Shown piece after piece: positions 17,983 through 51,959 of a stretch of 64,000 bases of DNA (position 1 is the stretch's first letter; each line of letters begins with the position of its first letter). This DNA comes from an uncultured Pseudomonadales bacterium (GTDB taxonomy: Bacteria > Patescibacteriota > Microgenomatia > UBA1400 > UBA12108). The DNA is taken from the NCBI GenBank assembly GCA_964527065.1, contig CAZGNX010000001.1, positions 45 to 64,044 of the forward strand, given 5' to 3'. The notes under the pieces are model-generated. The model did no database searches and was not told where the DNA came from. It saw nothing but the letters and a program-made list of their open reading frames with translations. A program made the position numbers and the translations under genes.

Positions 17983-18134
17983 AATAGTCTCAGTATATCA
18001 GCTAGCTGGCAAGTCGGTAACTCAGTGAAATCGGTAGATTATTATTCAGTAAGCCAGCAGATCAGTGTTTCTGTTTTGCTGATGCACGGGGTGGCTGATT
18101 TGCCGAAAAACCGAATAACTGGTTTCACAGCTCA

Positions 18135-18776
18135 TTACTTTGCGGCGACGTTGGGGGCGACGATAGCCTGCTCGTAATCTGAGGCAGTGGTGAATTTTTG
18201 ACCCTTGACCGTGGAGTTGTAAAAACTGTGGAAGAGCTTCATCAAGCTCTGGGAGTTGATTTGTTGGGCGGTTAACCCAATGCGGGTGAGTTGTTTGATG
18301 AGATGATCGCGTTTGGGTTCAAGGTCGGTTTTGGCTTTGAGGATTAAGTCCTCGGTGATTTCGACTTTGCCGGAGAGGGTGACGAGTTGATAGGAGACGA
18401 CAATATAGAATTTTTTATCGAGCACGTTTTGTTCGGTGATTGTCGTTTCAATAAAACTGCGATATTGTTTCATGCGCTCCTTAAGGACTTCGTCTTTGAG
18501 TTTTTTCTCCTGGAGAGAAAGGAGTTCGATATAGGCGCTGATGTCTTTTTTCTCTGATTTGATCACGATTTGGATAGGGAAGGAGAGCGAATTGAGTAGG
18601 CCCGCGTAGGCATAGATGGTCGCGTCCTGCTCTTCTTCGGATAGGAGGCCAAAGTTGATGGCAGAGGTTTGGATGACCAGGCTACAAATGCCGTTTTTGA
18701 GAATGACCAAGTCGTCTTGAACAGTTTCGATGTCGAGATGATCTTGGGTGGTGGCGACAATGACTGATTCGGGCAT
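18135..18776 (-). CDS. hypothetical T4SS-associated protein
   Basis: 213 aa, no TM segment or signature recognised. Its position immediately upstream of virB4 in the same operon supports the call. Confidence 0.5.
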   Translation of the reverse strand: MPESVIVATTQDHLDIETVQDDLVILKNGICSLVIQTSAINFGLLSEEEQDATIYAYAGLLNSLSFPIQIVIKSEKKDISAYIELLSLQEKKLKDEVLKERMKQYRSFIETTITEQNVLDKKFYIVVSYQLVTLSGKVEITEDLILKAKTDLEPKRDHLIKQLTRIGLTAQQINSQSLMKLFHSFYNSTVKGQKFTTASDYEQAIVAPNVAAK

Positions 18777-18944
18777 GAAGCTAGTATAGCGGTTGTTCTC
18801 GCAATCTGCACGACCCCAAACGCAAAAGCGGTCTATCTGCGTCTGCTGACGCAGCGACCTAGAACTCGGCCTAACACGGCCTGCGTAGTTTTTGCAACTT
18901 GTGGCGCGCAGATCACTCGAACAATCTCTTATTAAGAAGGAGAT

Positions 18945-19946
18945 TCAACTACTTGCCCTGAGCTCAATTGGAGATAGGATGGTATTGTTAACGGCGAGCT
19001 GTTGAGGCGGGAAACTGAACCCATCTTTGTCGACCTCGATGACATAGGTCCCAGGACCAAGGGGGGTGGAGGTGTAGAACTGGCCGAGCGAGTTAGTCTT
19101 CATGGCCCTTTGGGGAATGCCGTCGCCGCTGACAATTTGGACGATTGCGTCTGGCACCAATTTGTCTCCTGCATCCACAACCACTCCGGTCACGAGGTTG
19201 GCAACCTTGGGGGAGGCGGGGAGGGTGATGTGTTTGGCAGAGCTAATCGGCACCGTCGCCGCTGATCTGGGGGCAGTGGGCTTGGAAGCGAAGACTATGT
19301 TTTCGGTGGTAGGGGGCGCAGAGACAGTGGTTGGGTTGGGCGCGGACTTGGGTATAGAGATCGGGACAGTTTTTGGAGTTTGGACGATCCGGTTGACCAC
19401 GGCTGACTGTGGGTTGAGTTTGCGGACAACAATTGAGGGCTTGACGACATCAACTGTTTTGGGGGGAGCTGGGGCGGTAGGGGTGACAGGAAGGGAGGTA
19501 AAGAGCGAGTCGAGAGAGGTAATCTTTGTTGATTCTTCAGCGCTCAAGTCTGAGATAGGCGTGCCTACCACTTGAGAGCTGGGAGCTTTGATGGTTTTGG
19601 TAATGGTGGTGACTAGGTCGGGGGGGTGGGCAGTGAAGAGAAACAAACTAGGGATTTTGTTGGTTTTTTGCCAGGTGAAGCGAGTGGGAGCATAAATTGC
19701 TTTGATAAAGTTGACAATCCACTGGTCAAGTGGGCGGTCTTCGATGGGGAAGAAGGCGAGGCCCACCCCCAAGAGGAGCGAGAGAATGACAAGTGGCCAC
19801 TTGAAGATGAAGATAAGGTTGCTGGCAAAGAAGAGGTAGGCAAGCACCATGCCCAGGGCCAGCTCCAAAAATTGCTTGAGCGTCATGTCTCCCACCAGGC
19901 GGAACTGGTACTGGGTCACGTTTTGGGGGATGGGGTGCTGCTGCAT
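18945..19946 (-). CDS. PrgI-like (VirB3-analogue) membrane protein with Pro/Thr-rich linker and C-terminal CarboxypepD_reg-like beta-sandwich
   Basis: 333 aa. TM 'FKWPLVILSLLLGVGLAFFP' + 'IEDRPLDQWIVNFIKAIYAPTRFTW' resembles the PrgI family. C-terminal 'VVDAGDKLVPDAIVQIV...GQFYTSTPLGPGTYVIEVDKDGFSF'. Confidence 0.45.
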   Translation of the reverse strand: MQQHPIPQNVTQYQFRLVGDMTLKQFLELALGMVLAYLFFASNLIFIFKWPLVILSLLLGVGLAFFPIEDRPLDQWIVNFIKAIYAPTRFTWQKTNKIPSLFLFTAHPPDLVTTITKTIKAPSSQVVGTPISDLSAEESTKITSLDSLFTSLPVTPTAPAPPKTVDVVKPSIVVRKLNPQSAVVNRIVQTPKTVPISIPKSAPNPTTVSAPPTTENIVFASKPTAPRSAATVPISSAKHITLPASPKVANLVTGVVVDAGDKLVPDAIVQIVSGDGIPQRAMKTNSLGQFYTSTPLGPGTYVIEVDKDGFSFPPQQLAVNNTILSPIELRASS

Positions 19947-19991
19947 ACAGTTTGAGTATACGGTATGCGGTAGAGAGTATGAAGTATGGGA

Positions 19992-20618
19992 TCAAGGAGA
20001 TGGAGACGGACTGGCAATAACATACCTGTGGGCTTCGGCGTCACCGCCCATGCTCTTTACCCACTCCTTGATTTCGTCAATGGCTTCTTGCGAAGTTATA
20101 TTGAGATTTTTGAGGGTGATCTCTAGTGTCATGGGGGAGGAGTAGACCACGCGGTAGAGTGGGGTGGTGTAGGGGGTGGATTGGGCAAGAGGATAGTCGC
20201 GCGCTAGCTCATCCTTCATGTTTTTGATGAGCAGCGGGTCGGTTTGAGAAGCTTGGGTGGTGAAGGAGTAGTCAGGAAGCTTTTGGTCTTTCCACTTGAT
20301 TTGCAGGAGATATTTTGTTTGTGGTTGAAGAAGAAGAGCAGGCTGTGCTCGTAGGCTTGTGGGGCTGCTTTGACTAAGCGTCCAGGAGATGCTTGGAACA
20401 GAGGCGAGTGTAAAATCAGCCGCAAAAACCTCTTCATCAAAAGTCAATAATGGTTTGATCTCGAGGCTTACGGCAAGGGCATTATGTGTGGGATTAGCTG
20501 CTACAATTTGGGGAGGGCTCGCCATCGACTTGTTCAAAAACACAAAAATAGCCAAAACGACCCCTAGGCCAACAGCCATGATTACATATAAGAGCCTTGA
20601 TCGTAAAAAGCGCTGCAT
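19992..20618 (-). CDS. membrane-anchored hypothetical protein (T4SS locus)
   Basis: ~208 aa. N-terminal TM 'LLYVIMAVGLGVVLAIFVFL', then a Ser/Thr-rich extracytoplasmic region. Translationally coupled to the upstream 945-aa gene. Confidence 0.5.
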   Translation of the reverse strand: MQRFLRSRLLYVIMAVGLGVVLAIFVFLNKSMASPPQIVAANPTHNALAVSLEIKPLLTFDEEVFAADFTLASVPSISWTLSQSSPTSLRAQPALLLQPQTKYLLQIKWKDQKLPDYSFTTQASQTDPLLIKNMKDELARDYPLAQSTPYTTPLYRVVYSSPMTLEITLKNLNITSQEAIDEIKEWVKSMGGDAEAHRYVIASPSPSP

Positions 20619-23455
20619 CATATTCTTCTTAGGTGTCCTGCCACACCAGTTTTAGGGAGACAATTATTGGCGCTAACACAACCATTGCACACTTGGTTGG
20701 CGTCTACCAGACAGACTAAGGCTCCCGCATCTTGCGACATTATACCAATATGGCCCGGGGCGCCGTCGCTACAAGTGCCTGAAGAATTAAAGACAATGGG
20801 GTCTCCGGGCCTGGCCCCACTGAGACCAGACACAAACTGGTATCCTGCGGCACCGCTTGTGTAGTTGCATGCATTTTTCCCTTCGAGACTCCCCCCAGCG
20901 CAGGCGATAGAAGCTTGGACAAAACCAACACATTGGAGATAGGTATAGGAGGTGGCAGAACGCTCGATGATTGCGGCAACTTCTGGTGCGACGGCCTTAG
21001 CGAGGAGGCAACCGATTCCTGTGGTTTGGATTCTTGCGCCTGTTACTGCGGGTCCGTAGCAGGCAGTAAGATAGTCGACGAGACAATTAGCACAACTCAA
21101 GACAGAGTTCCCTGGTGATTGTTCCACGGGGGCGGTCGTCTCTGCGCTTGCTTCGTCATCGTTACAAAAGATGGCGGCGAATAGTTCTGGTCCTGAATCG
21201 ATGTGAGAAGTTATGTTGAATACCTGGAAGAGTAGAAACACCCCTGCAATTAGGGCGCCAACGGCGATGAGAGCAGGGAGAAAAACAGTGGAGAAGAGGG
21301 TTGTTACTAATGTCCCAATAGCACCGATTAAGGCCGAGCCTGTGGCAATTACCCAGGCAACTACGGCGGCGGGAATTGCGACAACTGCGGAGGAAGCAAT
21401 GGATAAGATGGCTGGTAGGCGGCGGATGATCTTGTCTCGGAAGCCGTTTTGGTTGGTGATGAATTCCCAAATGCCCTTGAGACCTGCCCCAATCGCCATA
21501 AGCCCAGCTTGGATCAAAATAGTGGTTCCACCGGAAAGAGTTCCTGCCAGGAAAGACGCTACAACTTTGCCGATTGCGCCATTACTCAGCTTGGTGGCAA
21601 TCCCTGGTGCTATTTTTGTAAACCCACTCCATAACTTGGAGGCTACGGCGGCTTTGACAGCGGTAATGTCCTTTTTATTGAGTATCGTGCGCGCGCTCCA
21701 ATCTAAGATGTTTCCCCACTTTTTTTCGACAAAGTTAAAACTGGCATGACTCCAACTGCCGCCGGCCTGTACGAACCCTTTGGAAAAATCTGAGATGTGG
21801 GTAAAGATGCCGGCATACCACTTGCCGCTTGTACTGGCCTTGGTGGCGACCCCCGTAGACCAGTTAAGGATTTTGTCGGCGATCCAGAGCTGTCCAAGCG
21901 TTGTTTTGTCGGAGATAAGCCTGGCGGGGTTGAGCAGAGGAATCTTTTCTTCGAGCTGTTCCCACTTTTCTGCTAAGTAGTTGAAGGGAGAATGGATAAA
22001 ATCATCGACAGCCCAGATAGTTTTGCCGATTTTTTGAGAGAAACGATCGATGGGAGCTTTGGTGGCGGCATACGTCCCCCTGGCCCGACCAATCTTGTCC
22101 CGCACAGAGAAGAGCACGTCATGATCCAAGGCATATTTGTAGCGCTCGTATTCCGAGCGATATTTAAAGTGATGAACAATCTCAATAATGGCTTCAAAAT
22201 TGGCGTCTTTGCCTTCTTTTGCAAGCTCGGCTTGTAAGAATGCTGTGAGATCTTTGGTTTTATACTTCTCCTCTAGCATGAGACCACTACGGTCTAGGTC
22301 TTTACGCGACCGCCAAGGAGTGTCAAGGGAGACCCCAATGTCTCTGGTTAAACTAAGTGTATGGAGGAGGCGCGGATCACTTTCGAGTACGTTGCCACCT
22401 AAGATTTTGGCCACTTCGTTTTGACGCACTTCTTCGATCAGGGGAGCGAGTGAGGAGAGCTGGTCGAAGGCGGTATCAGGGAAACCGGCCGACTTGAGTG
22501 ACTCCCGGATAAGGACTTCGCCGGAGACAAATCCTGAGGTGGTGGTTGCGATGATGTTTTTACGAAGTGATTCAACGAGCTTGTCCTTGTTTAGATCATG
22601 ACCGGCGACAAGATCAACTAGAGTGGGGATGTCGGCAATGGTTGTTAGCTGGGGGAGGGAGGATAAGCGGGACATATCATCACGGAAGGCTTTTTGTCCT
22701 TCGGGACTACCCCCATACTCCTTTTGAATGACCGCCTCAATGGCGCTCGTGAGTTCGGGTAGCTCTTGATCGGCCTTGGCAGAGTAAGCAAGGTGGCTAG
22801 CATTGTTCAAGGCACCATCACCGGATCTCAGCTGGATTAACTGGGTAATCTCCTCGGCGATAGCGATGGTGCTCTTGCCTGGCGCCGGGCGCAGATTGGC
22901 GGCATCGGCTGCAAGGAGTGCTGAGAGCACCGAAAAAGTGTAGGGGTCTCCTGCAAAGCGCTTTAAGTACTGAGTTTGCTGGATGGCGGTCGTGAGTTTG
23001 CCGAGGATTTTGTCGTTGATTAACTTATATTGCAGATTACGGAGTTCGTTGGCTTTTTTATATGTCTGTCCTTCAGCTGTCTCAGGGCGTAAGTTCTTGA
23101 GAGGGGTGTCTTTGGCTGAGTCAAGAATGGAGCGGAAGTTAGCGGCGGCTTCGCGTGACTTGCCTTGTACGTTGATCTCGAGATAGTTAAGCAGTCGCGA
23201 TGCCCTGATTTTACGCGAGCCCCGGTCGCCCATTGGTAGACTAACCTCGTTGTCCCTTGCCCAAGCCGTAATCTCTTGCCAGGCTTCTTCGGGGGAGAGT
23301 TTGAGTTTTGTTTTATCTGGTAAGTCGAGTTCTAAGGGACGGTTGCTGAGGATGAGCTTGAGGTAGTAGGTGAGGAGCTGGTGGTTACTATTTAAGTCTC
23401 GAGCCAAGAGATCTTGGAGATAGCGACGTTGAACTTGTGAGATTGTACTGGCCAT
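20618..23455 (-). CDS. T4SS-associated membrane protein with C-terminal CHAP-domain peptidoglycan hydrolase (VirB1 functional analogue)
   Basis: 945 aa. ~640-aa N-terminal helical domain, then a TM cluster ('LPAILSIASSAVVAIPAAVVAWVIATGSALIGAIG...'). C-terminal 'YTYLQCVGFV' (catalytic Cys) and 'GAPGHIGIM' (His) of CHAP. Confidence 0.65.
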   Translation of the reverse strand: MASTISQVQRRYLQDLLARDLNSNHQLLTYYLKLILSNRPLELDLPDKTKLKLSPEEAWQEITAWARDNEVSLPMGDRGSRKIRASRLLNYLEINVQGKSREAAANFRSILDSAKDTPLKNLRPETAEGQTYKKANELRNLQYKLINDKILGKLTTAIQQTQYLKRFAGDPYTFSVLSALLAADAANLRPAPGKSTIAIAEEITQLIQLRSGDGALNNASHLAYSAKADQELPELTSAIEAVIQKEYGGSPEGQKAFRDDMSRLSSLPQLTTIADIPTLVDLVAGHDLNKDKLVESLRKNIIATTTSGFVSGEVLIRESLKSAGFPDTAFDQLSSLAPLIEEVRQNEVAKILGGNVLESDPRLLHTLSLTRDIGVSLDTPWRSRKDLDRSGLMLEEKYKTKDLTAFLQAELAKEGKDANFEAIIEIVHHFKYRSEYERYKYALDHDVLFSVRDKIGRARGTYAATKAPIDRFSQKIGKTIWAVDDFIHSPFNYLAEKWEQLEEKIPLLNPARLISDKTTLGQLWIADKILNWSTGVATKASTSGKWYAGIFTHISDFSKGFVQAGGSWSHASFNFVEKKWGNILDWSARTILNKKDITAVKAAVASKLWSGFTKIAPGIATKLSNGAIGKVVASFLAGTLSGGTTILIQAGLMAIGAGLKGIWEFITNQNGFRDKIIRRLPAILSIASSAVVAIPAAVVAWVIATGSALIGAIGTLVTTLFSTVFLPALIAVGALIAGVFLLFQVFNITSHIDSGPELFAAIFCNDDEASAETTAPVEQSPGNSVLSCANCLVDYLTACYGPAVTGARIQTTGIGCLLAKAVAPEVAAIIERSATSYTYLQCVGFVQASIACAGGSLEGKNACNYTSGAAGYQFVSGLSGARPGDPIVFNSSGTCSDGAPGHIGIMSQDAGALVCLVDANQVCNGCVSANNCLPKTGVAGHLRRI

Positions 23456-23498
23456 GGGGTTATTCTAGCATTGTGCTTGCCTCTGGTGTGATAGAATT

Positions 23499-26400
23499 AT
23501 GCCTATGGGTGAACATCTACAAGTTGGTATATCAGACAAACTGCGCGCTCTGGTTGAGAAAGCGAGAGGTGAGAAAAAACCCAGAGACAACGAAGATGCG
23601 CCGATTGGAGAAAAGAAGAAAAACATCCTCGAGTGGGCATTGACAGCGGCGGCAACGAGAATCGTGTTGGCTCGTGATGTAGGAGAACTTTCTGTTCAAT
23701 TGAAGGATATACAGAGTAGTTTGGCAGGTGGAAAAGATACTGCCGAAGTGGATAGGTTGCGAGCCGCCGTCATGGACAAGATGGATGAGCTCGTTCATGG
23801 GGAGGACTTGATTGAGGCGAACACCGCGATGAAGGGGTATATTTATAGCGGCAAAGTTGGGGATGCGGTTGCGCTATTGGAAAAAATGGCTAAACAGGAT
23901 AGGTATAAACTAACCACTGCTCAGCACAAAGAGGTTGACGAGTTGTTGGGGTCAGTGAAAGATCTCGATACTGAGAAGAGCGCGAATGATGCTGTAATAG
24001 AAGCCAAGATTAAGCAAGTTGAACAAAAGGGTGGCGCACTCAGCAAGACAGTGGACAAAGAACTGACATCTATCAGAGACAGCAGCAACGAGATAGAGAC
24101 GAGCGTGTCGGCAAAGAATTTGGAAAATGAAAAATTAAAACTAATCCCGAAGAAGCTAACTAAGAAGAAGATAGAGATCAAGCAGGCAGAGGTGGTAGAA
24201 ATAGCTCAACAAGCCGACAAAGTGGCCGACAAACACGACAAGGCCACGAAACATGATAATAGATTTATCAAAAAACTATTAGAAGGTGGAAATGATGGGT
24301 TTGGGGTAGTGGATGCAAGCGGGAATCTGGTTATTGAAATCGATAAATTGAGCCATCCTAAGGCAGAATATTTGTATGGTCGTGTGAGTACGGCTTTAGG
24401 GAGATATCAGAGCAAGCTAGGAAGTCCCGATAACGCTGAACTGAAGGCCTATCTAGAAGAAGTGGAGTTTGAATTGCGGGGGCGGCTCCATGACTTAGAG
24501 GACATAGATCGGGAGAAGTGGAGAGTAGAAGGTAAGACAGAGGATGAAATGAAGTGGGAAAAATTGCCAGCCATAGAAAAATCAAGGATTATAGAAAACT
24601 TTGACTTCATTGACAAGAATATGTCGGCAGAGCAGATGTTGCAACATGCAATGCGAGAGCGTCAGAATCAGGGTATTAGCATGAAGCGTAGTGAGGTGGC
24701 TTTACAAAATCTATTACGCGAGCACCCAGAAATCCGGGCAAAGTTTAATGAGAAGGGAGAGTGGGTGGGGACGGCGGAAGAGTTTTTTGAACTTTGCCGA
24801 CTCGAAATTTACAAAATTAGAGATAGTGTCCCTGAGGAGCGCTTGGGCAATTTGGTGTTTGAGGAAACGGCTGATATATATCTTGCCCTGATGGGAATTA
24901 GTACCAAGAATAACCCCGAGCTAAAAAACATGAAGGATGCGGTAACCAAGACTCTTTATCTGGAGTTTGTGGTTAAGTCTCTATGGAAAGCTGGGGGTAA
25001 CCATGAGGCCTGGCAGAGAGCGGCAGCACTCATTTTGAGAGAAGGGGCAGACACCAACTTTTTCTTGACAATGAAGGTCAGGGAAAAATTGCGCGGGAAG
25101 GATAAAAGGGGGAACGATATTCCTCCACTGCCAGGATTTAATATCGATGACATGATGACGCTTGGTGAGCTGAGGGCACCCAATGGTCAATCATGGCTGG
25201 CCTATATTTCTACTAACAATATTCAGCTGAATGAATCTAGATTACAGGAGATGGGTAATGCCCTAGCAAAACTTACCCTTGAAAAGGCAAAATTGCGCAA
25301 GAACAAGGACAGAAAGATGGAGATCTCTAGCGCTGACTACTCTACGTACCTGGCGATGTTAACTAATAAGGAAATCAAGTTTGACAAGGAACAGCTTGAT
25401 TGGGTGCGTAACTATATGCAGTATATCCATGTTGCCACCCTCAACGTCGGAGAGAAACTATGGCTGATGGATGGGACAGTCCCTGGTAGAAAAGGATTTG
25501 ATTACGCTAGTCTCCCAGGGGGCCAGTTTGCACAAAAGTCGGGGTTGTGGCCTATCTTATATTTTGCTAAATACAACGTGACGAAATATGGCTTTGAAGG
25601 GCTTGGTAAGTTGTTTATCCCTAACCCAGGCCTGTTGTCGTACGCAAGAGGAGAAACTTTAAGACACTTTATGTCGGCGAATGGGAGTGAGGACTGGTTA
25701 AGAGATCCAGAGGGGGATTTGTATAAACCGGGAGGAGGAGCGAGAGACTTTTTCTTTGAAGGGAAGACAAAGACCGATCAGGAAATGAAGGTGTTTACTG
25801 ACTTTTGGGAAGAGATATGGCTTGATTCGCGTACAGGAACTTCTTTTAAATCTAAAGGGATGCGCTCACTCCAGAATTCAAGAGATGTAGGGATGGAGCT
25901 GATTAAACTGAACAAACACAAAGATTTTATCGATGACATGAAGTTTGATCAATTAGAGAGACTCGTTGGTCACGAAATACCGGGTGCTACTAACGAGGAA
26001 AAACTTACTTGGGTAGTTGGAAACTTGGATTACGACATGATGGAGATGAGCACGATGCCATCTAAGCGGGAGGGAGACTGGGTAAATAAGTATTCTAAGA
26101 TTTATGTAGAAACGGTGAAGGCATTCCAAGACTTTTTGGATGCACCCACTTTGACTAACAAAATGAAGATCATTACATCAGTTGCACAATACAATAGTGA
26201 AGCTGTGTCCAACCTCTCGAAACAGTTGAATGATTTTATTGAGAATAAAAGTAAGTATAAAATCGGTCTTTTGAAGAGAAAGAATCCTAAAACTGGCCAA
26301 ATTGAGCTGGGGAACCCACTAAATCCTTTTCATTGGATCGGGCCAAAAACAGTGAGTGACGACCAGAAGGATCTCGTGCGATCGGCGGATGGGGACAATA

Positions 26401-26798
26401 TGGAGATGCCTGTCATGGGGAAAAGCGCCACAGATGGATGGTACCTAGGGAGAGGACTGAAATTCTCATTGGAAGAGGCCAAAGAGGGTAGGCGTAATCC
26501 CATGGTGATGAAGAAGATTGAGATCCAAAATGAGATTGCTTGGGGGATAGTGTCTCCGCAGGAAGGCGGCCAGAAAATGCGAGACTGGCAGAAAATGATA
26601 TATTTTGGCGATCAAATAGTCCTAGGAAAACTAAAACTGAGGCCTGGGATGATCCCCTTTTTGACCCCGTACTTTTTACTGCGAGGCTACTGGGTAGACA
26701 GGATGGGTTTTGATTGGGAGGACTTTAAGATGATTATGGCCAAGCAAAATGAAGAGACGTGGGAAAAGCTGAAGAAGTTACTGGGGATTGAAATATAG
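23499..26798 (+). CDS. large orphan protein (1099 aa), Lys/Glu-rich helical N-terminus, no recognisable domain
   Basis: Long uninterrupted ORF with protein-like composition. No TM, signal peptide, Walker or HUH motifs found. Embedded between the two T4SS operons. Confidence 0.7.
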   Translation: MPMGEHLQVGISDKLRALVEKARGEKKPRDNEDAPIGEKKKNILEWALTAAATRIVLARDVGELSVQLKDIQSSLAGGKDTAEVDRLRAAVMDKMDELVHGEDLIEANTAMKGYIYSGKVGDAVALLEKMAKQDRYKLTTAQHKEVDELLGSVKDLDTEKSANDAVIEAKIKQVEQKGGALSKTVDKELTSIRDSSNEIETSVSAKNLENEKLKLIPKKLTKKKIEIKQAEVVEIAQQADKVADKHDKATKHDNRFIKKLLEGGNDGFGVVDASGNLVIEIDKLSHPKAEYLYGRVSTALGRYQSKLGSPDNAELKAYLEEVEFELRGRLHDLEDIDREKWRVEGKTEDEMKWEKLPAIEKSRIIENFDFIDKNMSAEQMLQHAMRERQNQGISMKRSEVALQNLLREHPEIRAKFNEKGEWVGTAEEFFELCRLEIYKIRDSVPEERLGNLVFEETADIYLALMGISTKNNPELKNMKDAVTKTLYLEFVVKSLWKAGGNHEAWQRAAALILREGADTNFFLTMKVREKLRGKDKRGNDIPPLPGFNIDDMMTLGELRAPNGQSWLAYISTNNIQLNESRLQEMGNALAKLTLEKAKLRKNKDRKMEISSADYSTYLAMLTNKEIKFDKEQLDWVRNYMQYIHVATLNVGEKLWLMDGTVPGRKGFDYASLPGGQFAQKSGLWPILYFAKYNVTKYGFEGLGKLFIPNPGLLSYARGETLRHFMSANGSEDWLRDPEGDLYKPGGGARDFFFEGKTKTDQEMKVFTDFWEEIWLDSRTGTSFKSKGMRSLQNSRDVGMELIKLNKHKDFIDDMKFDQLERLVGHEIPGATNEEKLTWVVGNLDYDMMEMSTMPSKREGDWVNKYSKIYVETVKAFQDFLDAPTLTNKMKIITSVAQYNSEAVSNLSKQLNDFIENKSKYKIGLLKRKNPKTGQIELGNPLNPFHWIGPKTVSDDQKDLVRSADGDNMEMPVMGKSATDGWYLGRGLKFSLEEAKEGRRNPMVMKKIEIQNEIAWGIVSPQEGGQKMRDWQKMIYFGDQIVLGKLKLRPGMIPFLTPYFLLRGYWVDRMGFDWEDFKMIMAKQNEETWEKLKKLLGIEI

Positions 26799-26801: not shown

Positions 26802-28376
26802 TTAGGCTGATTTTTTTGGTTTGCCACTGCCTTCTTCTTCGTATTTCTTCATAGCATCGACGTTGGCACGAGCTTGGAATTCTGCCATTGAGCGTTGCTC
26901 GCGGAGCGAACGAGCTTGCTTGCCCCAGCCCACAGGATAGCCCACACCGGTTGAAACAACCCCACCAAAGGCTTTGAGAGCCTCGGCACCATAGGGAGAT
27001 TCTTTGACTTGTAGCCATTCCTGAGCCATCTTGGCAGCTGAAGGGGTCATGAGGAAAACAAAAAACCCGATCAAGGCCAGGATATCCAGACTTTGGACAT
27101 CAGCGTTGGGACCTAAGGCATCGGTCAAGGTGAAGGGGGGGACCCAGACTTCTGTACGTCCAGCAATATCTCTCACCCCAAAAGGATTCTGTTGGCCGAT
27201 TGTGGAGGGACCGCCGTCGCCTGGCCACAGGTCATTGGCGACAATGGCGCTCGTGGGATTGCCAATCAAGATGGCAGAGAAAATAAACATACTCGCCACA
27301 ACGGGGAAGGGAATGAGGTAGCTAGCTGTGGTTTTGATCCAGGTAGAGAAGGCCTTACTCCCGGGCATGGCGTTCATCAAGATTTGAAGTGGGGCGGTGA
27401 TGGTTTGGACGATGAGCATGACGTAGGATTTAATGAGAGCAACCATTAATTTAAGCATAGCTATGATAAAACTAACCACCACAAACAAATAAAGGGGCGA
27501 AACCATTCCGAGAGTTAAAAACTGCGTGGCAGTGTCGAGAAAGTTGACGAGACCACCAACAATGCCAATACCACCAGTACCAAGGCTACCCAGTACTCCC
27601 TGAAGAGACCCAGTAACGGCTAGGATAATGCTGTTGCGGCCAGCAAAGACCACATTCCAGGCAGAATGAGTCATCAACCTTTCGATGGAGGCGCTTGCAT
27701 CAATGATCCCTACTGAGGCAATGAGATACACGACAAAGTAGATGAGAAAATACATGAGGTCGATCATAAAACCGACGATAGCGTAGGAGAAGGTGATGAG
27801 CAAGAGTGTCACGAGGAGGTTGGGGATGGCACTCTGAATGGTAATCACTGTCTGGGCATTCACCTTAGTGCGGAGCATAATCATGACGCCCACAACCACG
27901 AACATGATGATGTAGAGTGAGTAGGCGACATTGCGGAAGACTTTCCAGAATTCGAGAAATGGTTGCATTGCTGTGTAGCCCGTGCCTTGGGCGTAGGCCC
28001 GACTGACAGAGGGAATGCCAATGTTGTCAAGCAGATCGGCAACATATTCTCGGCTGGAGATTTGGTTGTTATAGATCATGGCGACAACCTTGCCTTGTGT
28101 GCCCAAAACACCGGGGCTGTAAATATAGCCGAGACCATCAGCCGAAGGGAGCTTGCCACCCAAAAAAGCAAATTGATTTTGTGGTACTGAGCTCAGGCGA
28201 TCTTTGATACAGGGATCTTCTGGGGTATTGGCAACGTTAAAGCTGGTGATAGTTAGGTTGCTGTTGATAGCGCAGATAAAGCCATTCAGTAGTCCAGGAG
28301 TGGCCTCTACGGCAGAGGCAGGGGTGGGACTGGTGAGGAAGAGAAACATAAGAAAGACGAGCAAGAGCTTTTTCAT
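26802..28376 (-). CDS. VirB6/TrbL-like polytopic membrane protein
   Basis: 524 aa. Signal peptide 'MKKLLLVFLMFLFLTSPTPASA', ≥6 TM helices, hydrophilic C-terminus. Placement within a T4SS-like operon. Confidence 0.5.
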   Translation of the reverse strand: MKKLLLVFLMFLFLTSPTPASAVEATPGLLNGFICAINSNLTITSFNVANTPEDPCIKDRLSSVPQNQFAFLGGKLPSADGLGYIYSPGVLGTQGKVVAMIYNNQISSREYVADLLDNIGIPSVSRAYAQGTGYTAMQPFLEFWKVFRNVAYSLYIIMFVVVGVMIMLRTKVNAQTVITIQSAIPNLLVTLLLITFSYAIVGFMIDLMYFLIYFVVYLIASVGIIDASASIERLMTHSAWNVVFAGRNSIILAVTGSLQGVLGSLGTGGIGIVGGLVNFLDTATQFLTLGMVSPLYLFVVVSFIIAMLKLMVALIKSYVMLIVQTITAPLQILMNAMPGSKAFSTWIKTTASYLIPFPVVASMFIFSAILIGNPTSAIVANDLWPGDGGPSTIGQQNPFGVRDIAGRTEVWVPPFTLTDALGPNADVQSLDILALIGFFVFLMTPSAAKMAQEWLQVKESPYGAEALKAFGGVVSTGVGYPVGWGKQARSLREQRSMAEFQARANVDAMKKYEEEGSGKPKKSA

Positions 28377-28399: not shown

Positions 28400-28909
28400 T
28401 TAGGGCTTGAGCTTGAGAGCGGTAATCCAGGCTTGGGTAGTATGTCTCACATATTCTTTGTCGCCGTAGATGAAAATGAGTTTTTTGGGATCAATATTTT
28501 GACCTTCAAGCATCTCCATAGCCTTGAGATAACTTTCTTTGAACGCTGTGACGTTGGGGTTCTTTTTTTCGTCTGCATCCGCGTTGAGATATGAGAGGCC
28601 GTAGATCTCGAGACGTACAATCTCGGCTTCGTCGTCGTCAAGGCGATAGAGGTTGATAGAAGTGGTGATGCCCACGGAGGTCTCGAAGGACTCGAGGTAG
28701 AGTGGGAGCTTGTTTTCAATCGAAGCAACATACACCATAGTGTCGCGGCGTTTTTCGGCTGAGAGATCGGCGAGTTCGATGCGGCTGGGTCCAGTTGGGA
28801 CGGGTAGTTCTGCAGGGTTGCTGACATTTTTACTTGGCGAGAGAAGTAGTACTAGGACGAGGAGAGAGATCGAGATAGCGGCGGCGATAAGGAAGAATTT
28901 GTTGTTCAT
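28400..28909 (-). CDS. membrane-anchored hypothetical protein
   Basis: 169 aa. N-terminal TM 'FFLIAAAISISLLVLVLLL'. Translationally coupled (3-nt gap) to the upstream 879-aa gene. Confidence 0.5.
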   Translation of the reverse strand: MNNKFFLIAAAISISLLVLVLLLSPSKNVSNPAELPVPTGPSRIELADLSAEKRRDTMVYVASIENKLPLYLESFETSVGITTSINLYRLDDDEAEIVRLEIYGLSYLNADADEKKNPNVTAFKESYLKAMEMLEGQNIDPKKLIFIYGDKEYVRHTTQAWITALKLKP

Positions 28910-28911
28910 AC

Positions 28912-31551
28912 CTAGAACCCTGGTAGCTTGATAATATCACCCGCGACAATACGCAAAATCGAGACCGAGAAAATAAGGAAGAGGAGTCCGGTGACGGCGG
29001 CACCAAAGAGTTCTTTGCCTTTTTTGAGTTTCTCGTCATTGTCTCTGGCGGTCATGATTTGGAAGATGGCGATAAACATCACCACGATAGCGATACCGCC
29101 GGCTAGGCCGACCAAGAAAGCAAAAAGCGCGGTGCCAAAGGCCTCTCTCGTGTAGGGGATACAACCCAGGGCGGTGGAGAGTGATTGCGGGCCACAACTC
29201 GTGGGGAAGAAGCCGAAGGTGCCAGGCTCGTTGTCTGGTGTTGTGGGGGGGATTAGTGGGGCGGGAGGGGGAGAGGGGAGCTCGGTATTTTCATAACCAC
29301 CCTTGGTCATGTTGTTATACACGCTGAGAGCAACAGTAAACGAACCAGGTCTTTCAAAGATTTGAGGGGCGCAGGCGGTGCGGTCGGCACAGTAGAGGAG
29401 ATACATCGAATCGTGTTTGCCATCGAGGAAGCTGGTCGGGTAGGGATCGTCCTCGCCTTCAAAAGCGCGGGGACAGCCGCCATAGGGGATGGGATAAGGA
29501 TAACCGAGTTGACAGTTACTGTTGCCACCACCGTTGTAGCGGGAGAGAGCGGTGATGGCAGTCTGCGCATCCCCAATTGCCCCGCCCACCTTGCCTTTGA
29601 GATGTTCACCCGCATAGACGGCAGTCTCAAGGAGGGAGCGGAAGATCTTACCGCCCGCATCGGGCTCGGGAGTGCCGAGAGCCCGCCCAGAAACGAGTGA
29701 GCCATTGGGGTTATTGGCCGCCTCGACAAAGTGGATACCCGCCAAGATTTCACACGGTACGCCGGTCTCCTTTTCGGCGGCGGCATAGGTGTTCATTAGT
29801 TCGGCGCTCAAATTGGGTTGGATAAACGTCGAGAAGTAGCTCTCGCCCTTGGCGCTCGCGCTCTGATAATTACTACTGCCAAGCAGTTCACCAAACAGCC
29901 GTCCGTCACATTTACCTTCTGGTACCACCTGGGCGGTATCGCAGCCATTGCGGGTACCCAGAGCGTACGCCTCAACGCTAGTCTCAAGCTGAGCGGAAAA
30001 CATGTTGTCAGCACAGGTGTAGTAGCCATAATGACGCCTACCATCGGCGGGACCTGAGTATTTGCCTGCTTTGAGAAGATCAAGGTTGTCGTCTACGACA
30101 TTGCTGAGTTTAACATTAAACTCTTTGACTGATTCTAGCTCGGCCAAGGTATCGCGAGTGTCGTAGGTGTATTGCTTAATCTCTGCGATACTTTGACCCA
30201 TTGCGTCTGGAATTGTCAAGAGGTGATAAACGACAGGTTCAACGTCGTCAATCTGAGCGCCCCAAATGAGATTGATGAGAGCTTGTAGAAGGTTGCCGGT
30301 GGGGAATGCCGCGGCCTTTTCTTTTTGTACCTCTGGTTGGAGGCGGTAGCCAGGGCAGTTTTTATCTCCTCCGAGAAAAGATGGTGTTTCCAAATAGTCG
30401 TAGATTTGGTAAAAGGCGCCGTAGGAACCAAAGTGATATTTGAAACAGGGATTGCTCGCCATAAGCTCTGGAATGAGGCGTGCCTTAATCTTTTTGGCGG
30501 TGGCGTTTGGCGCCGCAGAGCCAGCAAAGCGAATTAGCTGGTTGGACGAGGCAAGGTCGCGAATTATTTTGCTTGCCTCATCTAGTGGATAGGTGAGAAG
30601 TAGATCGTCAAGGGCGGCGCCAAAGGCTTGGGAGATAGAGATGTCGCCGTAGAGCGCGTTGGAGTTGCCCTCCAACGCAAGGCTGCTAAAGGGGCAGTTT
30701 TCTCCGGGGCAACAGCGATCCCAGACGCAGATACTGGCGTGGACATACCCCTGGCGAAACGAGGGGCTATACATCGGGACTTGGGAGAGGTCCCTAAACC
30801 ACTCAGGTGGGGTAGTTTGTGAAGCTGCCTCTTCTATAGCGTCACAGGCTCGTTTACGGGAGCTTGAGGCATCGGAGACGGCATCGAGATTGCCGGCGTT
30901 TAAGAAAAAATCGTCCGTTGCTTCCACTATCACCTGTCCAGCCCCTGCCAATCCTCCAGGTATTTCGTCGCGGATCTCGAGTAAGGTTTTGCCGTTCTGG
31001 GTTGTGTAGCCCCAGTCGACCCAGCCAAGTGGCCACTGCCCAGTCTCAGCTAGAGTGTTCTTGGTTTGCTTGGCACGAATCACGACCATGAGCTGTTTGG
31101 TCATGATCTCGCACTGAGTAAGCCCGAGGAAGTGGGTACCCCAAGTGATCGCGTTATCTGTACCCATGTTGCCATACAAGAGGGCTTCGTTTTGGATTTT
31201 GGGGAAAACGAGGCGAGTGAGTGGACGAGCGCCCGTCTCAGCTCCCGTTTCTTGATTCAGTGTCCGATTCTCAGCGGAAAAGTCCGTAGCTTTGATATCG
31301 GAGCCAACGCGGGGTTTTTTCTTGTACTCACATTCGCCCACGCTAACCCCACTCTTGGTAGGATCTTTGATGGCGGTACAACTACCATTGCCTGAAGAGA
31401 CTGTACTATGATAATCACCTCTGCCATTGGCCACCTTGCGCTCACAGAGATCAACCTCTCCACCATCACAGCCGTCAATGAGCTCGCCTGATTGATTATC
31501 GCGCTCACAATAGTCATCTCTACGATCAGCACCTTCGTACTCACAGACCAT
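28912..31551 (-). CDS. giant secreted fusion protein: Cys-rich region + SLT-like lytic transglycosylase motif + C-terminal VirB2/TrbC-like pilin module. Preceded in frame by a signal-peptide ORF cut off by TAG
   Basis: 879 aa from the Met at 31551. 'ILAGIHFVEAANNPNGSLVSGRALG' resembles the SLT catalytic 'ESSFNPNA...GA.GLMQ'. The last ~80 aa ('LGCIP...GLAGGIAIVVMF...KKGKELFGAAVTGLLFLIFSVSILRIVAGDIIKLPGF') are nearly identical to ORF 38811..39248. Confidence 0.7.
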   Translation of the reverse strand: MVCEYEGADRRDDYCERDNQSGELIDGCDGGEVDLCERKVANGRGDYHSTVSSGNGSCTAIKDPTKSGVSVGECEYKKKPRVGSDIKATDFSAENRTLNQETGAETGARPLTRLVFPKIQNEALLYGNMGTDNAITWGTHFLGLTQCEIMTKQLMVVIRAKQTKNTLAETGQWPLGWVDWGYTTQNGKTLLEIRDEIPGGLAGAGQVIVEATDDFFLNAGNLDAVSDASSSRKRACDAIEEAASQTTPPEWFRDLSQVPMYSPSFRQGYVHASICVWDRCCPGENCPFSSLALEGNSNALYGDISISQAFGAALDDLLLTYPLDEASKIIRDLASSNQLIRFAGSAAPNATAKKIKARLIPELMASNPCFKYHFGSYGAFYQIYDYLETPSFLGGDKNCPGYRLQPEVQKEKAAAFPTGNLLQALINLIWGAQIDDVEPVVYHLLTIPDAMGQSIAEIKQYTYDTRDTLAELESVKEFNVKLSNVVDDNLDLLKAGKYSGPADGRRHYGYYTCADNMFSAQLETSVEAYALGTRNGCDTAQVVPEGKCDGRLFGELLGSSNYQSASAKGESYFSTFIQPNLSAELMNTYAAAEKETGVPCEILAGIHFVEAANNPNGSLVSGRALGTPEPDAGGKIFRSLLETAVYAGEHLKGKVGGAIGDAQTAITALSRYNGGGNSNCQLGYPYPIPYGGCPRAFEGEDDPYPTSFLDGKHDSMYLLYCADRTACAPQIFERPGSFTVALSVYNNMTKGGYENTELPSPPPAPLIPPTTPDNEPGTFGFFPTSCGPQSLSTALGCIPYTREAFGTALFAFLVGLAGGIAIVVMFIAIFQIMTARDNDEKLKKGKELFGAAVTGLLFLIFSVSILRIVAGDIIKLPGF

Positions 31552-31644
31552 TAGTGGTTGATAGTCACGAGTGAGATCGCGGTTTTCGTAGACTTTGAAA
31601 TATGGTGCTCGTATGAAACGAAAGAGACTGAATAGCTCAAACTA

Positions 31645-31773
31645 CTCCTCGCGCTCGGGGTTGCCTTCAATAGAGAAGGGGGGGAAGGGGTCGATGGCCA
31701 GGGAAAGAGGAGGAAATAGGAAATAGGAAATAGGAAATAGGAATAATACGAAAAAACGCAAGAGCTTTTTCAT
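31645..31773 (-). CDS. signal-peptide mini-ORF (43 aa) in frame with the 879-aa gene but separated by TAG (31642-31644). Possible pseudogene 5' part or readthrough site
   Basis: Hand translation: MKKLLRFFVLFLFPISYFLFPPLSLAIDPFPPFSIEGNPEREE*. 'LA|IDP' matches the cleavage context of the 145-aa paralogue ('AALAIDP'). Frame stays open from 31641 to the Met at 31551. Confidence 0.5.
31712..31746. repeat. (GGAAATA)4 + GGAATAA heptanucleotide tandem repeat within the signal-peptide ORF
   Basis: Read directly. Same unit as 10607-10634. Encodes 'FPISYFLFP'. Confidence 0.9.
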
Positions 31774-31775
31774 AG

Positions 31776-32072
31776 CTAGTTAAAGCCAAATCTAAACTCA
31801 GTGACACTGGCTCCTGTTGTATTTTGGATGAATAAGAGGATGAGCCAGGAGAGAATTGAGAGCGCGATACCCACCACTGCGAGAGTAATTGTCTGCTTGC
31901 CTCCGGCCATACCCTTGGGATCACCACCTGAGGTAAGAATCTTGAAACCGCCAATGAGGAGCATGATAAAGGCAACTATGCCAATGAGGGGGATCATGGC
32001 CTCAAGGATGTTGCCGAAGTAGTCGGAGAGACAAGATAGTTCGGCGGCGGAAGCGGTATCGTTGCATGGCAT
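31776..32072 (-). CDS. VirB2/TrbC-like pilin family small membrane protein (paralogue 1)
   Basis: 98 aa. Two hydrophobic helices flanking 'LTSGGDPKGMAGG'. Same architecture as its neighbours. Confidence 0.5.
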   Translation of the reverse strand: MPCNDTASAAELSCLSDYFGNILEAMIPLIGIVAFIMLLIGGFKILTSGGDPKGMAGGKQTITLAVVGIALSILSWLILLFIQNTTGASVTEFRFGFN

Positions 32073-32280
32073 ATGGGATGATTATAGCAAAGAGCAAGGG
32101 TCGGATGATCACATTAATTTTATCTCACTGACTAAAATTGATCTCAAATACGATTGCTCGCAGGCTTCTCGTCTGCACCTGTTCGACTAGACGGCATACT
32201 CGCATTTTCAGGCGAATTTTCGCTCAATTTCTTAACGTATGTTCGTAAAATTAACGATGATCATCCTCACGCTAGGAGTC

Positions 32281-32631
32281 TTAGTAGGCTTTGGGTGGGG
32301 TGATGTTGTCGTTCAATATGCTGATACCGAAGAAGTATTGAATGACAAGCATGATGGCCCAGGCGCTCGCCACAACCGCCAAGCCAACGAGAGCGGCAGT
32401 GATACGATCACGAGCTTCCTGCGTTTTGCCTTTGTCACCGCCGGAGGTGATCCATTGGATGCCACCCCAAATAAGATACATGAAGACGAGCAGGGCAGAT
32501 ATAAGTAGAGCACCCTGGACAGCCCCTTTGATGAGCGTGCCAATGTTGGTGATGGCGACGTTTTCGGGTTTGCCAATTGAGAGTTCTGGAGCGCCTGGGG
32601 CTTGAGCGTAAACTTTGATTGAATCAAACAT
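32281..32631 (-). CDS. VirB2/TrbC-like pilin family small protein (paralogue 2)
   Basis: 116 aa. 'GGIQWITSGGDKGKTQEARDRI' loop between two hydrophobic helices. Confidence 0.55.
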   Translation of the reverse strand: MFDSIKVYAQAPGAPELSIGKPENVAITNIGTLIKGAVQGALLISALLVFMYLIWGGIQWITSGGDKGKTQEARDRITAALVGLAVVASAWAIMLVIQYFFGISILNDNITPPKAY

Positions 32632-32680
32632 ATCTTTCTCCTTATTTGTACTATCTAGTTATAGTGTAGTCAATTATTGA

Positions 32681-33049
32681 TTATTGTGCAATACCTATTC
32701 CAAAGAAATAATCTAGCAGGAGATAGACTGCCCAAGCAGAGGCGACAATGGCGAGTCCAATGATGCCGTTGGTGATTTTGGCGCGCGCTTCGTCCAGTTT
32801 GCCCTTGTCACCACCGGAACTAATCCACTGCAGACCTCCATAGATAAGATAGAGGAGCGTGGCAAGGCCAGCCACAAGAATAATGGCAGAGATGGTTTTG
32901 CTGACGAATGAGCCAAGATCGGTGTTGATGGCGACGCGTGATTCGACCTGATCACCTATACTGACGTTGAATGAGCCGGCTTGGGCATGAGCTGAGCTAG
33001 GAAAGAGGAAAGAGGAAAGAGGAAATAGATACAGTAAAATTTTTTTCAT
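32681..33049 (-). CDS. VirB2/TrbC-like pilin family small protein (paralogue 3)
   Basis: 122 aa. Signal peptide 'MKKILLYLFPLSSFLFPSSAHA'. 'GGLQWISSGGDKGKLDEARAKI'. Confidence 0.55.
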   Translation of the reverse strand: MKKILLYLFPLSSFLFPSSAHAQAGSFNVSIGDQVESRVAINTDLGSFVSKTISAIILVAGLATLLYLIYGGLQWISSGGDKGKLDEARAKITNGIIGLAIVASAWAVYLLLDYFFGIGIAQ

Positions 33050-33053
33050 ATGC

Positions 33054-33443
33054 TCAGCCGGCAGTGGGCCAGATTATATTGAGTATATTCATCCCGATGG
33101 CCATCTCAATAAACTTGATAATGACATAAGAGGCAGCGAGGAGGGCGAGTCCCACGAGACCTTGGGTGATTTTGCCCCTAGCTTCGTCGATCTTGCCTTT
33201 GTCACCCCCGGCCGTGATCCACTGTAAGCCGCCGTGCAAAAAGTAGAGGATAAACGCGAGCCCACCTACAAGAATGATGGTCTGCCAAAGAGTAGCGATC
33301 GTGATAGCAAATTGTTGTGGGGAAGCATCGGGTGAGTCACCTCCTGGTACGGCGGTGTTGGTGATGGCGGCATGCGCCAGAGACGCTCTTGTATAAAGTA
33401 TGGAGTATAGGGTATATAGTATCGGGACTATTTTGTTTGTCAT
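33054..33443 (-). CDS. VirB2/TrbC-like pilin family small protein (paralogue 4)
   Basis: 129 aa. 'GGLQWITAGGDKGKIDEARGKI'. N-terminus 'ILYTLYSILYT' is encoded by a degenerate AGTATRG heptamer repeat (33395-33425). Confidence 0.55.
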   Translation of the reverse strand: MTNKIVPILYTLYSILYTRASLAHAAITNTAVPGGDSPDASPQQFAITIATLWQTIILVGGLAFILYFLHGGLQWITAGGDKGKIDEARGKITQGLVGLALLAASYVIIKFIEMAIGMNILNIIWPTAG

Positions 33444-33445
33444 TT

Positions 33446-33805
33446 TTAGTTCACTGTAAGGCCGTTAATAAGTGCGCCAGGGTTGAGGATGTCGAGCCCC
33501 AGTGCTTTGCCCACAATCCAGACGATAGCATAAGAAACAGTGACTACAATGATGCCTGTTGCGCCTCCTGTCATCATGCTTTTGGCTTTGTCGATCTTGC
33601 CTTTGTCACCACCGGCCGTGATCCAATTGAGGCCACCCAGGAGGAAATAGAGGGCGAAGGCTATGCCAGCCACGAGAGTGAGGATTACAAGAATATTGCT
33701 GATGAGTTTTTCCACGGCACTTGTTGACCCCTCGATGCCTGTCCCTGGTTGGTAGCCACCGGGAGTGGTGATGTTGCCAAATTGGAGCGCGAGGTATTTG
33801 TTCAT
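33446..33805 (-). CDS. VirB2/TrbC-like pilin family small protein (paralogue 5)
   Basis: 119 aa. 'GGLNWITAGGDKGKIDKAKSMM'. Confidence 0.55.
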   Translation of the reverse strand: MNKYLALQFGNITTPGGYQPGTGIEGSTSAVEKLISNILVILTLVAGIAFALYFLLGGLNWITAGGDKGKIDKAKSMMTGGATGIIVVTVSYAIVWIVGKALGLDILNPGALINGLTVN

Positions 33806-33809
33806 ATGT

Positions 33810-34148: not shown

Positions 34149-34152
34149 AAGT

Positions 34153-51651: not shown

Positions 51652-51736
51652 ATGGAGGTACTATCTCAAACTAGGTGAAATATATCAAGAGGATTTATAA
51701 CGGATTTATAAATTACTCTGGGGATTTTATAAACTG

Positions 51737-51948: not shown

Positions 51949-51959
51949 AGGTTTGAAAA

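Follow-up and report, generated by a model that had tools for sequence, protein, structure and literature searches.

The 64,000-nt stretch of DNA analysed here (the window, from contig CAZGNX010000001.1) carried an uninterrupted open reading frame (ORF) of 1099 codons on the plus strand at 23499..26798, which was followed by a TAG stop codon. This focal gene occupied an inverted position, named slot X, between two operons of a type IV secretion system (T4SS). A frame of this length stays open by chance with a probability of roughly (61/64)^1099, about 1e-23. The gene is real and selectively constrained, and its product is specific to this T4SS subtype, fixed in the inverted slot between the VirB6-like and the (VirB1)-VirB3-TrsD-VirB4 operons. 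The features of the gene and of its two neighbours were as follows.

23505..26798, plus strand: focal coding sequence, 1097 aa and stop; an in-frame upstream ATG at 23499 gives the 1099-aa ORF
23505..24764, plus strand: variable, charged, predicted all-helical N-terminal module (about residues 1–420)
24765..26795, plus strand: conserved C-terminal module (about residues 421–1099), alpha-rich with small beta hairpins and no known fold
26061..26099, plus strand: superfamily signature SKREGDWVNKYSK (residues 855–867 in the 1099-aa numbering)
26661..26795, plus strand: conserved extreme C-terminus PYFLLRGYWVD...DWEDF...NEETWEKLKKLLGIEI, a candidate docking or translocation signal
23489..23497, plus strand: extended −10 box TGATAGAAT, 7 nt before ATG 23505; predicted promoter of a leaderless or near-leaderless focal mRNA
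23462..23470, minus strand: extended −10 box TGCTAGAAT, 6 nt before the CHAP ATG at 23455; predicted promoter of the CHAP..VirB4 operon
20618..23455, minus strand: CHAP-domain gene (945 aa, VirB1-like hydrolase), the divergent neighbour; its ATG lies 43 nt from the focal ORF
26802..28376, minus strand: gene of a 524-aa polytopic membrane protein, the convergent neighbour, with a signal peptide and about 7–9 transmembrane (TM)-like windows

The stop codons of the focal gene and the 524-aa gene were separated by 3 nt. The 524-aa protein was called VirB6-like on topology and position only; its homology to VirB6 was unconfirmed by Pfam.

An earlier note on this DNA had described a long, clean gene of 1099 aa, opposite in strand to both flanking operons and diverging from the CHAP gene with a spacer of 43 nt. 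The uninterrupted frame, far longer than expected by chance and with homologues under purifying selection, was upheld, as were the strand arrangement (focal gene plus, CHAP and 524-aa genes both minus) and the spacer to the CHAP ATG at 23455. The extent of the ORF was also correct, whereas its start was moved. Translation almost certainly begins at the second ATG, 23505, which gives 1097 aa, since all homologues of the focal gene begin with M[GK]EHL, the NCBI version of the protein has 1097 aa, and a conserved box lies 7 nt upstream. The ATG at 23499 fell within the promoter-to-start spacer. The product is a protein of ~125 kDa with a single cysteine.

Occupancy of the slot and the protein superfamily

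Related loci compared with the window locus are numbered L001–L068. A word-indexed search of 5.8 billion proteins gave nine full-length relatives with 47–58% identity, and an exhaustive profile search of 1.84 billion cluster representatives gave 17 matches, the full-length ones all 1094–1124 aa long and none of the 17 bearing a Pfam domain or name. Repeat word-indexed searches with alignments A2 and A5 contributed hardly any further relatives, a scan of genome representatives returned a single locus, and tblastn against plasmids and phages gave no match to the focal family. Members down to 20–24% identity were examined in their contig context (L001–L007 and L066–L068). On all of these contigs except L004, the gene was inverted between a CHAP-like gene (~900–1140 aa) and a VirB6-like gene, with a CHAP spacer of 44–49 nt and a stop-to-stop distance of 3–25 nt to the VirB6-like gene. 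In L004 the gene converged on the VirB6-like homologue, but a CHAP-like gene was undetected upstream. Every focal-family context examined was the T4SS slot. One of these contigs, L001 (CAYFZD010000021.1), held a T4SS segment with CHAP-like, slot (42% identity), VirB6-like, and pilin-fusion genes, and was deposited as a metagenome-assembled genome of an ‘uncultured Pseudomonadales bacterium’; it is probably a mis-binned contig or carries a wrong taxonomic label.

When metagenome contigs were scanned with an alignment of the VirB6-like neighbour, 58 further loci were found. Loci entered the slot count when 2 kb or more of DNA followed the VirB6-like gene, which gave 43 loci with 37 distinct proteins. 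The next gene was a convergent, opposite-strand ORF of 587–1322 aa in 43/43 loci, with stop-to-stop spacers of −3 to 194 nt, mostly <40 nt. Co-occurrence with the secretion genes, which the earlier note had proposed as a check, was therefore complete in the related T4SS loci, and absence of the gene from genomes carrying the locus, named there as a point of refutation, was not found. The slot ORFs were essentially free of TM segments, the few hydrophobic windows >1.6 being borderline or located within spurious upstream extensions, and a Pfam scan of 18 of them gave no domain in any. In the near group of loci, the VirB6-like protein was 45–73% identical to that of the window and the slot ORF of 1093–1322 aa was followed by a multi-TM CHAP-like gene. 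In the distant group, the VirB6-like protein was ~30% identical and the slot ORF was 587–916 aa; in the distant loci inspected (L048 and L054), the VirB3-TrsD-VirB4 genes came directly after it. The hidden Markov model (HMM) of the focal family recognised only 3 new loci at E ≤1e-3, so that an HMM survey alone would wrongly suggest that most loci lack the gene. Profile searches thus badly under-count such families, with 17 clusters found by the exhaustive HMM search against 37 distinct proteins found by position.

The near-group proteins were clustered by BLAST single linkage and compared profile to profile (hhalign). The focal family matched cluster A1 (L011, L015, L020, L026, L029, and L030) with a probability of 99.6% and an E value of 7e-24 over 586 colinear columns of the C-terminal module, and matched cluster C (L016, L034, and L013) with 95.6% and 1e-8. 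Cluster B (L017, L024, L031, L033, and L035) was borderline, at 39% against the focal family and 69% against C. By these profile comparisons, the slot proteins of 1093–1322 aa form one very divergent superfamily, with cluster B at its border. In the joint alignment, the motif [ST]KRxxDΦxxKY was common to all four clusters; K864 and Y865 were its best-kept positions, and the tyrosine was invariant in 20–24 sequences. All four clusters also shared the colinear C-terminal end PYxΦxRGΦΦVD ... DWxDF ... E(E/K)T...ΦK..Φ. The distant group of 587–916 aa is a positional equivalent only, since no homology to it was detectable by hhalign. These distant equivalents had basic tails, with a net charge of +2 to +8 over the last 30 aa. 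The slot proteins of L011, L024, L026, L030, L046, and L057 had C-termini in which basic residues or His came after a Gly-rich stretch (GGGGGGKPH, GGGHGGH, GSGGH, GAGGH, GGGGGRKKH, and SGGKKH), and such tails recurred across otherwise unrelated clusters.

The focal protein contained no TM segment (the best 19-residue window had a Kyte–Doolittle mean of 1.05), no signal-peptide-like N-terminus, and no Walker A motif. Searches of Pfam, NCBIfam, and PDB sequences with the focal protein gave no match, and no Pfam or NCBIfam domain was detected in 15 homologues. PDB profile searches with three alignments (A2, A6, and the single sequence) gave only non-significant helical or low-complexity matches. 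The absence of TM segments and of nucleotide-binding or relaxase motifs, as the earlier note had claimed, was therefore confirmed, and its charged helical N-terminus was found as 420 aa with 36–37% Lys, Glu, Asp, and Arg, predicted to be all-helical. Clear homology to a housekeeping family, which the note had set against its own proposal, was not detected in the Pfam, NCBIfam, PDB sequence, or profile searches. The word orphan, also used there, held with respect to annotated families, none of which matched, and failed with respect to relatives, since relatives or positional equivalents were present in every related T4SS locus examined.

Pfam and NCBIfam gave no relaxase, primase, or helicase domain in the protein, and a coupling protein of the VirD4/TcpA kind was not indicated, there being no TM anchor, Walker A motif, or Pfam match. 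Nothing pointed to a polymorphic toxin of the Rhs, CDI, or X-Tfe style: no toxin-like domain was found in the protein and no immunity gene was adjacent, with no room for an immunity ORF because the stop codon lies 3 nt from that of the neighbour. A phage tape-measure or minor tail protein was not supported either, as the best BFVD match had an E value of 7e-3 with a template-modelling score of 0.06–0.10, tblastn against phages was empty, and the surroundings were chromosomal housekeeping genes. Internal repeats (self-hhalign) and paralogy with the CHAP protein were both rejected.

Role of the slot protein

The two extended −10 boxes were placed back-to-back inside the 43-nt spacer, and this arrangement was kept in 8/8 loci first examined. 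The pattern TGnTAnAAT was present 5–9 nt before an in-frame ATG in 21/21 near-group loci and in 7 distant loci. Because of the conserved boxes at this distance, leaderless mRNAs from a compact bidirectional promoter were predicted, and the focal gene is predicted to form its own transcription unit with a leaderless extended −10 promoter. Leaderless-type promoters look like a habit of the genome, not of the focal gene specifically. The window contained 18 TGNTANAAT sites, and 8/18 were located 6–8 nt before the ATG of an ORF of at least 50 aa, with start codons at 2493, 5386, 23455, 23505, 32072, 41040, 50014, and 54314. In the 37-nt spacer between the sigma-factor gene and the pilin operon (34474-34510), two back-to-back −10-like boxes were also observed near both ATGs. 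A near-consensus sigma-70 promoter, TTGTCA-17-TATAAT (11/12 matches), was located on the minus strand at 24588-24616, antisense within the variable N-terminal part and ~1.1 kb upstream of the CHAP gene start; it may be due to chance, as 6 promoter-like sites were found in the region with 6.7 expected.

No terminator-like site was found between the focal gene and the convergent VirB6-like gene, and with spacers of mostly −3 to about 40 nt the converging transcripts would collide. This arrangement, together with a weak and non-significant profile match to the N-domain of a phage CI repressor (E 0.18), would suit a passenger or regulatory gene without a direct secretion role, such as a regulator, an insulator separating the operons, or a selfish or defence gene. 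Such a role is very improbable. A constrained protein of 590–1320 aa, with a ratio of nonsynonymous to synonymous substitution rates (dN/dS) of about 0.1, would be needless for insulation, no DNA-binding or defence domain was found with Pfam or NCBIfam, homologues included, and members of the family turned up only in the T4SS slot. Because no meaningful inverted repeats flanked the gene, an invertible or mobile cassette was rejected.

The structure of the protein was predicted by AlphaFold2. The model from 9 sequences was poor, with a predicted local distance difference test (pLDDT) of 58.8, and that from 19 sequences, including members of 20% identity, reached a pLDDT of 77.2 and a predicted template-modelling score of 0.57. 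In the latter model, the N-terminal 420 aa formed long helices and bundles, and the C-terminal module was alpha-rich and contained small hairpins; the pLDDT was 80–96 over much of residues 520–640 and 750–920. An exported structural element of the apparatus, for example a wall-spanning stalk, a pilus-tip protein or translocator, or a ruler-like protein that leaves without a Sec signal and stays attached to the machine, is indistinguishable from soluble cargo in the present data. It was considered unlikely, as the fold matches were generic and non-significant and no repeats were found by self-hhalign. Known T4SS pilins and tip proteins use Sec signals, which also counts against such an element.

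In close pairs of loci, the Nei–Gojobori dN/dS was 0.075–0.11 for the focal gene, 0.05–0.095 for the VirB6-like gene, and 0.04–0.10 for the CHAP gene, values which are rough because dS was near saturation. The focal gene is under purifying selection comparable to that on its neighbours in close pairs, and constant fast evolution in its simple form was rejected, since the close-pair dN/dS of about 0.1 equalled that of the neighbours. The first 420 aa were 53–81% identical where residues 421–880 were 84–97% identical. The dN/dS was about 0.10–0.16 in the N-terminal part and about 0.035–0.07 in most C-terminal segments, reaching up to 0.12 in some. When adjacent genes were compared in the same locus pair (L066 vs L008, L067 vs L009/L002), dS ranged from 0.12 to 1.5. 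The CHAP alleles differed by 45% where the slot gene differed by 22%, and were swappable independently. These differences in dS between adjacent genes and the swapping of CHAP alleles indicate that old allelic types have been recombined into a mosaic at this locus.

When the window was compared with L019, L033, and L035, VirB4 was 85–86% identical, TrsD 76–84%, PrgI 54%, and the VirB6-like protein 45–52%. The pilin-fusion protein was 44% identical in L019 and L033, and the CHAP protein was 34–37% identical in the same two loci with no match in L035. The focal protein had no BLAST match in any of the three. The long-range divergence of the focal protein, as judged from these identities, leans toward that of the host-facing parts and not of the cytoplasmic core.

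The main rival explanation, possible but rather doubtful, is that the slot protein serves the T4SS as an accessory subunit that stays in the cytoplasm and is never exported, acting as a scaffold, adaptor, substrate receptor, or gate. It would bind VirB4/TrsD, the VirB6-like protein, or the cytoplasmic N-domain of the CHAP protein, and might, although not an ATPase, do some of the work of the coupling protein that is missing. In favour of a subunit, the slot gene was present once per locus at a fixed position, like the structural genes, its C-terminal 680 aa were strongly constrained, and the conserved extreme end could be a docking helix. The CHAP protein has a Cys-free N-domain of 670 aa without a signal peptide. 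The window held no type IV coupling protein (T4CP), and in the account of Patescibacteria given in PMC12102498 few T4CP genes lie near virB4. Furthermore, slot and CHAP identities to the window tracked each other across loci (L001 42/32%, L003 58/50%, and L006 24/27%). This co-variation is explicable by linkage, however, because the locus is a recombination mosaic. The slot protein diverged past BLAST detection while the supposed partners VirB4/TrsD remained 76–94% identical, it has no NTPase motif, and it is encoded in a separate inverted transcription unit outside both machine operons.

The explanation to which the evidence leans, held at rather less than even confidence, is that the slot protein is a dedicated cargo exported by the T4SS, either an effector or a translocated host-contact protein. 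Such a cargo was favoured because the long-range divergence was like that of host-facing proteins, a variable N-terminal part was joined to a conserved C-terminal part with a conserved extreme C-terminus as in known T4SS substrates, the separate inverted transcription unit was kept, the distant equivalents carried basic tails, and the system is thought to move non-DNA substrates with no known cargo. The occupancy of 43/43 slots, the homology within the near group, the restriction of the family to the slot, and the lack of Sec signals and TM segments were also counted in its favour. The polarity of a variable N-terminus and a conserved C-terminus is typical of T4SS substrates with C-terminal recognition domains (X-Tfe with XVIPCD, Bep with BID and tail). 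As in T4SS substrates, the focal protein had no Sec signal, was predicted to be synthesised in the cytoplasm, and was genetically linked to a T4SS. As described in the sections of PMC12102498, PMC10633639, and PMC12857230 on these systems, relaxase and T4CP genes are missing from the neighbourhood of Patescibacteria T4SSs, epibiotic growth cannot proceed without these systems, and no cargo of theirs is known.

As a cargo, the slot protein would be synthesised in the cytoplasm, lacking a Sec signal, and would dock on the conserved cytoplasmic face of the machine (VirB4/TrsD/VirB6-like) by means of the conserved C-terminal module and the extreme C-terminus. The T4SS would then export it as dedicated cargo. 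Contact with the host cell would fall to the variable helical N-terminal module, which would diversify with host range. T4SS-dependent export of the slot protein is an inference.

Several observations weighed against export as cargo. The unstructured, positively charged extreme C-terminus of a T4SS substrate was not seen in the focal protein, whose last 30 aa were predicted to be helical with a net charge of −2; of the C-terminal signal features that the earlier note had proposed to look for, a conserved extreme C-terminus was present as a candidate signal and a basic tail was absent. The conserved C-terminal module was very large (~680 aa) and tightly constrained, a constraint as compatible with an enzyme or structural subunit as with a cargo that bears a signal. 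One copy was present per locus at a fixed position, as expected of a machine component. The close-pair rate equalled that of the VirB6-like gene, so that recombination of old allelic types may account for part of the long-range divergence. No T4CP gene was found among the ORFs of at least 400 aa in the 64-kb window, and no toxin-like domain or immunity gene was found at the focal gene. In addition, SEML1_0006-0019 of S. epibionticum, the sole experimentally studied Patescibacteria T4SS, had no recognisable inverted equivalent. The link to the secretion system proposed by the earlier note was sustained by the 43/43 slots; its choice between substrate and scaffold still lies between both, leaning toward substrate.

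A fuller version of the cargo proposal is offered tentatively, as a doubtful one. It holds that slot X encodes a protein cargo or translocated host-contact component of the Patescibacteria T4SS, the C-module of which docks on a machine that lacks a coupling protein while the fast-diversifying N-module sets host specificity. If true, this would be the first cargo family for an essential system and a class of T4SS substrate recognised without VirD4.

The surrounding locus

The remaining genes of the two operons, and the nearby replication genes, were located as follows.

16060..20621, minus strand: rest of the left operon, with VirB4, TrsD/TraC-like, PrgI/VirB3-like, and Big_5 genes
16060-17982, minus strand: VirB4 (PF19044, 2.3e-28), adjoining dnaN
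18135-18776, minus strand: TrsD/TraC-like protein of 213 aa (weak match)
18945-19946, minus strand: PrgI/VirB3-like protein (PF12666, 5.1e-7)
19992-20621, minus strand: Big_5 membrane-anchored protein
28400..34473, minus strand: rest of the right operon, with 169-aa, 879-aa, and seven pilin genes
within 28400..34473, minus strand: gene of a 169-aa single-TM protein
28912-31551, minus strand: 879-aa Cys-rich protein (24 Cys) with a pilin-like C-terminus (pilin-fusion)
31776-34473, minus strand: seven tandem VirB2-like pilin genes (PF18895)
13425-14804: dnaA
14966-16063: dnaN

A TraC-like annotation was found in L005. A sigma-70-family gene was located on the plus strand beyond the pilin genes. 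The CHAP assignment was weak (PF05257, E 3.3e-4, under the gathering score). The CHAP protein was composed of a Cys-free N-terminal part of 670 aa without a signal peptide, followed by TM segments and a Cys-rich CHAP domain, and its C-terminal 275 aa contained 13 Cys. VirB4, PrgI, the 169-aa and 209-aa proteins, and the slot protein were nearly Cys-free, and the extracytoplasmic T4SS domains were Cys-rich. Cys depletion was rejected as a marker of export: the focal family had 0.18% Cys and cytoplasmic housekeeping proteins 0.88%, which was non-discriminating because VirB4 and other T4SS parts were also Cys-poor and the Sec-exported domains here were Cys-rich.

The window is chromosomal, with yidC, dnaA, dnaN, glycogen genes, suf genes, tsaD, tmRNA, and tRNAs, and no ORF of at least 400 aa in it had a relaxase or T4CP domain. 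VirB4 with adjacent TrsD-like and PrgI/VirB3-like genes, the VirB2-like array, the proximity of dnaA/dnaN, and a cluster without relaxase or T4CP identified the system as a Patescibacteria-type (MPF-FATA-like) T4SS. The clade is described in corresponding terms in the part of PMC12102498 devoted to it: MPF-FATA-like, near dnaA, with TrsD, PrgI, and VirB2 arrays and no nearby relaxase or T4CP.

The machine operon tolerated insertions in related loci. In L002 (4557-6380), an AAA_14/DUF4143 ATPase gene and two small ORFs were inserted between the PrgI-like and Big_5-like genes, and in L003 (1358-4830) a 505-aa ORF and a GATase_6/7 (asparagine-synthase-like) gene were inserted between VirB4 and TrsD. 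The inverted slot gene kept its position in both loci. Elsewhere in the window, a 575-aa ORF without a Pfam match was located at 41931-43658 (plus strand) between a bPH_2-domain gene and the tmRNA gene. The SufB gene (55599-58094, plus strand, 831 aa) was split by an intein with a LAGLIDADG homing-endonuclease domain (PF14890 at 1.7e-17, and PF14528). Two adjacent tRNA-Ser genes were called at 51736-51949 (minus strand), to which ARAGORN assigned the anticodons GCT and the unusual ACT; Rfam reported the second of the two alone, and the ACT call is doubtful.

Comparison with known systems

The surrounding machine matched those described by Quinonero-Coronel et al. 2025 (PMC12102498) and, for S. 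epibionticum SEML1_0006-0019, by Wang et al. 2023 (PMC10633639). As far as these two accounts set out the clusters, the common features were VirB4, TrsD-like, and PrgI/VirB3-like proteins, a VirB1-like hydrolase, a VirB2-like array, the dnaA/dnaN neighbourhood, and the lack of relaxase and T4CP. In the S. epibionticum cluster, the large genes SEML1_0007, 0011, and 0013 are all on the machine strand and have membrane or peptidase features. In the passages on these loci in PMC12102498 and PMC10633639, neighbours were matched to known T4SS profiles and the rest was left unannotated, with no slot family or inverted giant gene described. The slot family is thus a new protein superfamily, undescribed in those passages, that belongs to a machine of a familiar type. 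According to PMC10633639, PMC12102498, and PMC12857230, T4SS genes occur widely across Patescibacteria, and the one species tested required them for epibiotic growth. The slot gene is a concrete first candidate for the cargo of this system or for a missing machine part, because it is always present in one T4SS subtype and never elsewhere, and encodes a strongly diversifying, Sec-less giant.

The 89K T4SS of Streptococcus suis, with the secreted protease SspA-1, is a monoderm T4SS that exports a protein and not DNA (PMC12857230). Unlike the slot protein, which has no recognisable domain, SspA-1 can be recognised as a subtilisin-like protease, and VirD4 is present in its system but not here.

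The accessory-subunit explanation has a model in DotM/DotN/IcmSW of Dot/Icm and in CagF-type chaperones, which are soluble, non-ATPase cytoplasmic partners that dock substrates. Such coupling-complex adaptors are much smaller than the slot protein and work with a T4CP, and no homology to them was detected.

For export as cargo, the X-Tfe effectors (XVIPCD, Xanthomonas/Stenotrophomonas) and the Bartonella Beps (BID and basic tail) show the same polarity of a variable N-terminus and a conserved C-terminus, and their genes, like the slot gene, lie near the T4SS. The conserved C-terminal module is ~680 aa in the slot protein and ~120 in X-Tfe and Beps, and neither an XVIPCD nor a BID domain was detected, as there was no Pfam or other family match. 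The slot gene also differs from them in having no adjacent immunity gene, a non-basic tail, and no VirD4 nearby.

CagA of the Helicobacter pylori cag pathogenicity island is, like the slot protein, giant (~120–145 kDa), largely helical, and Sec-less. Neither has sequence relatives outside its lineage, and both are encoded in their own transcription unit inside a T4SS island and are strain-variable. No sequence or fold similarity between the two was detected, and the likeness is one of logic, not of sequence.

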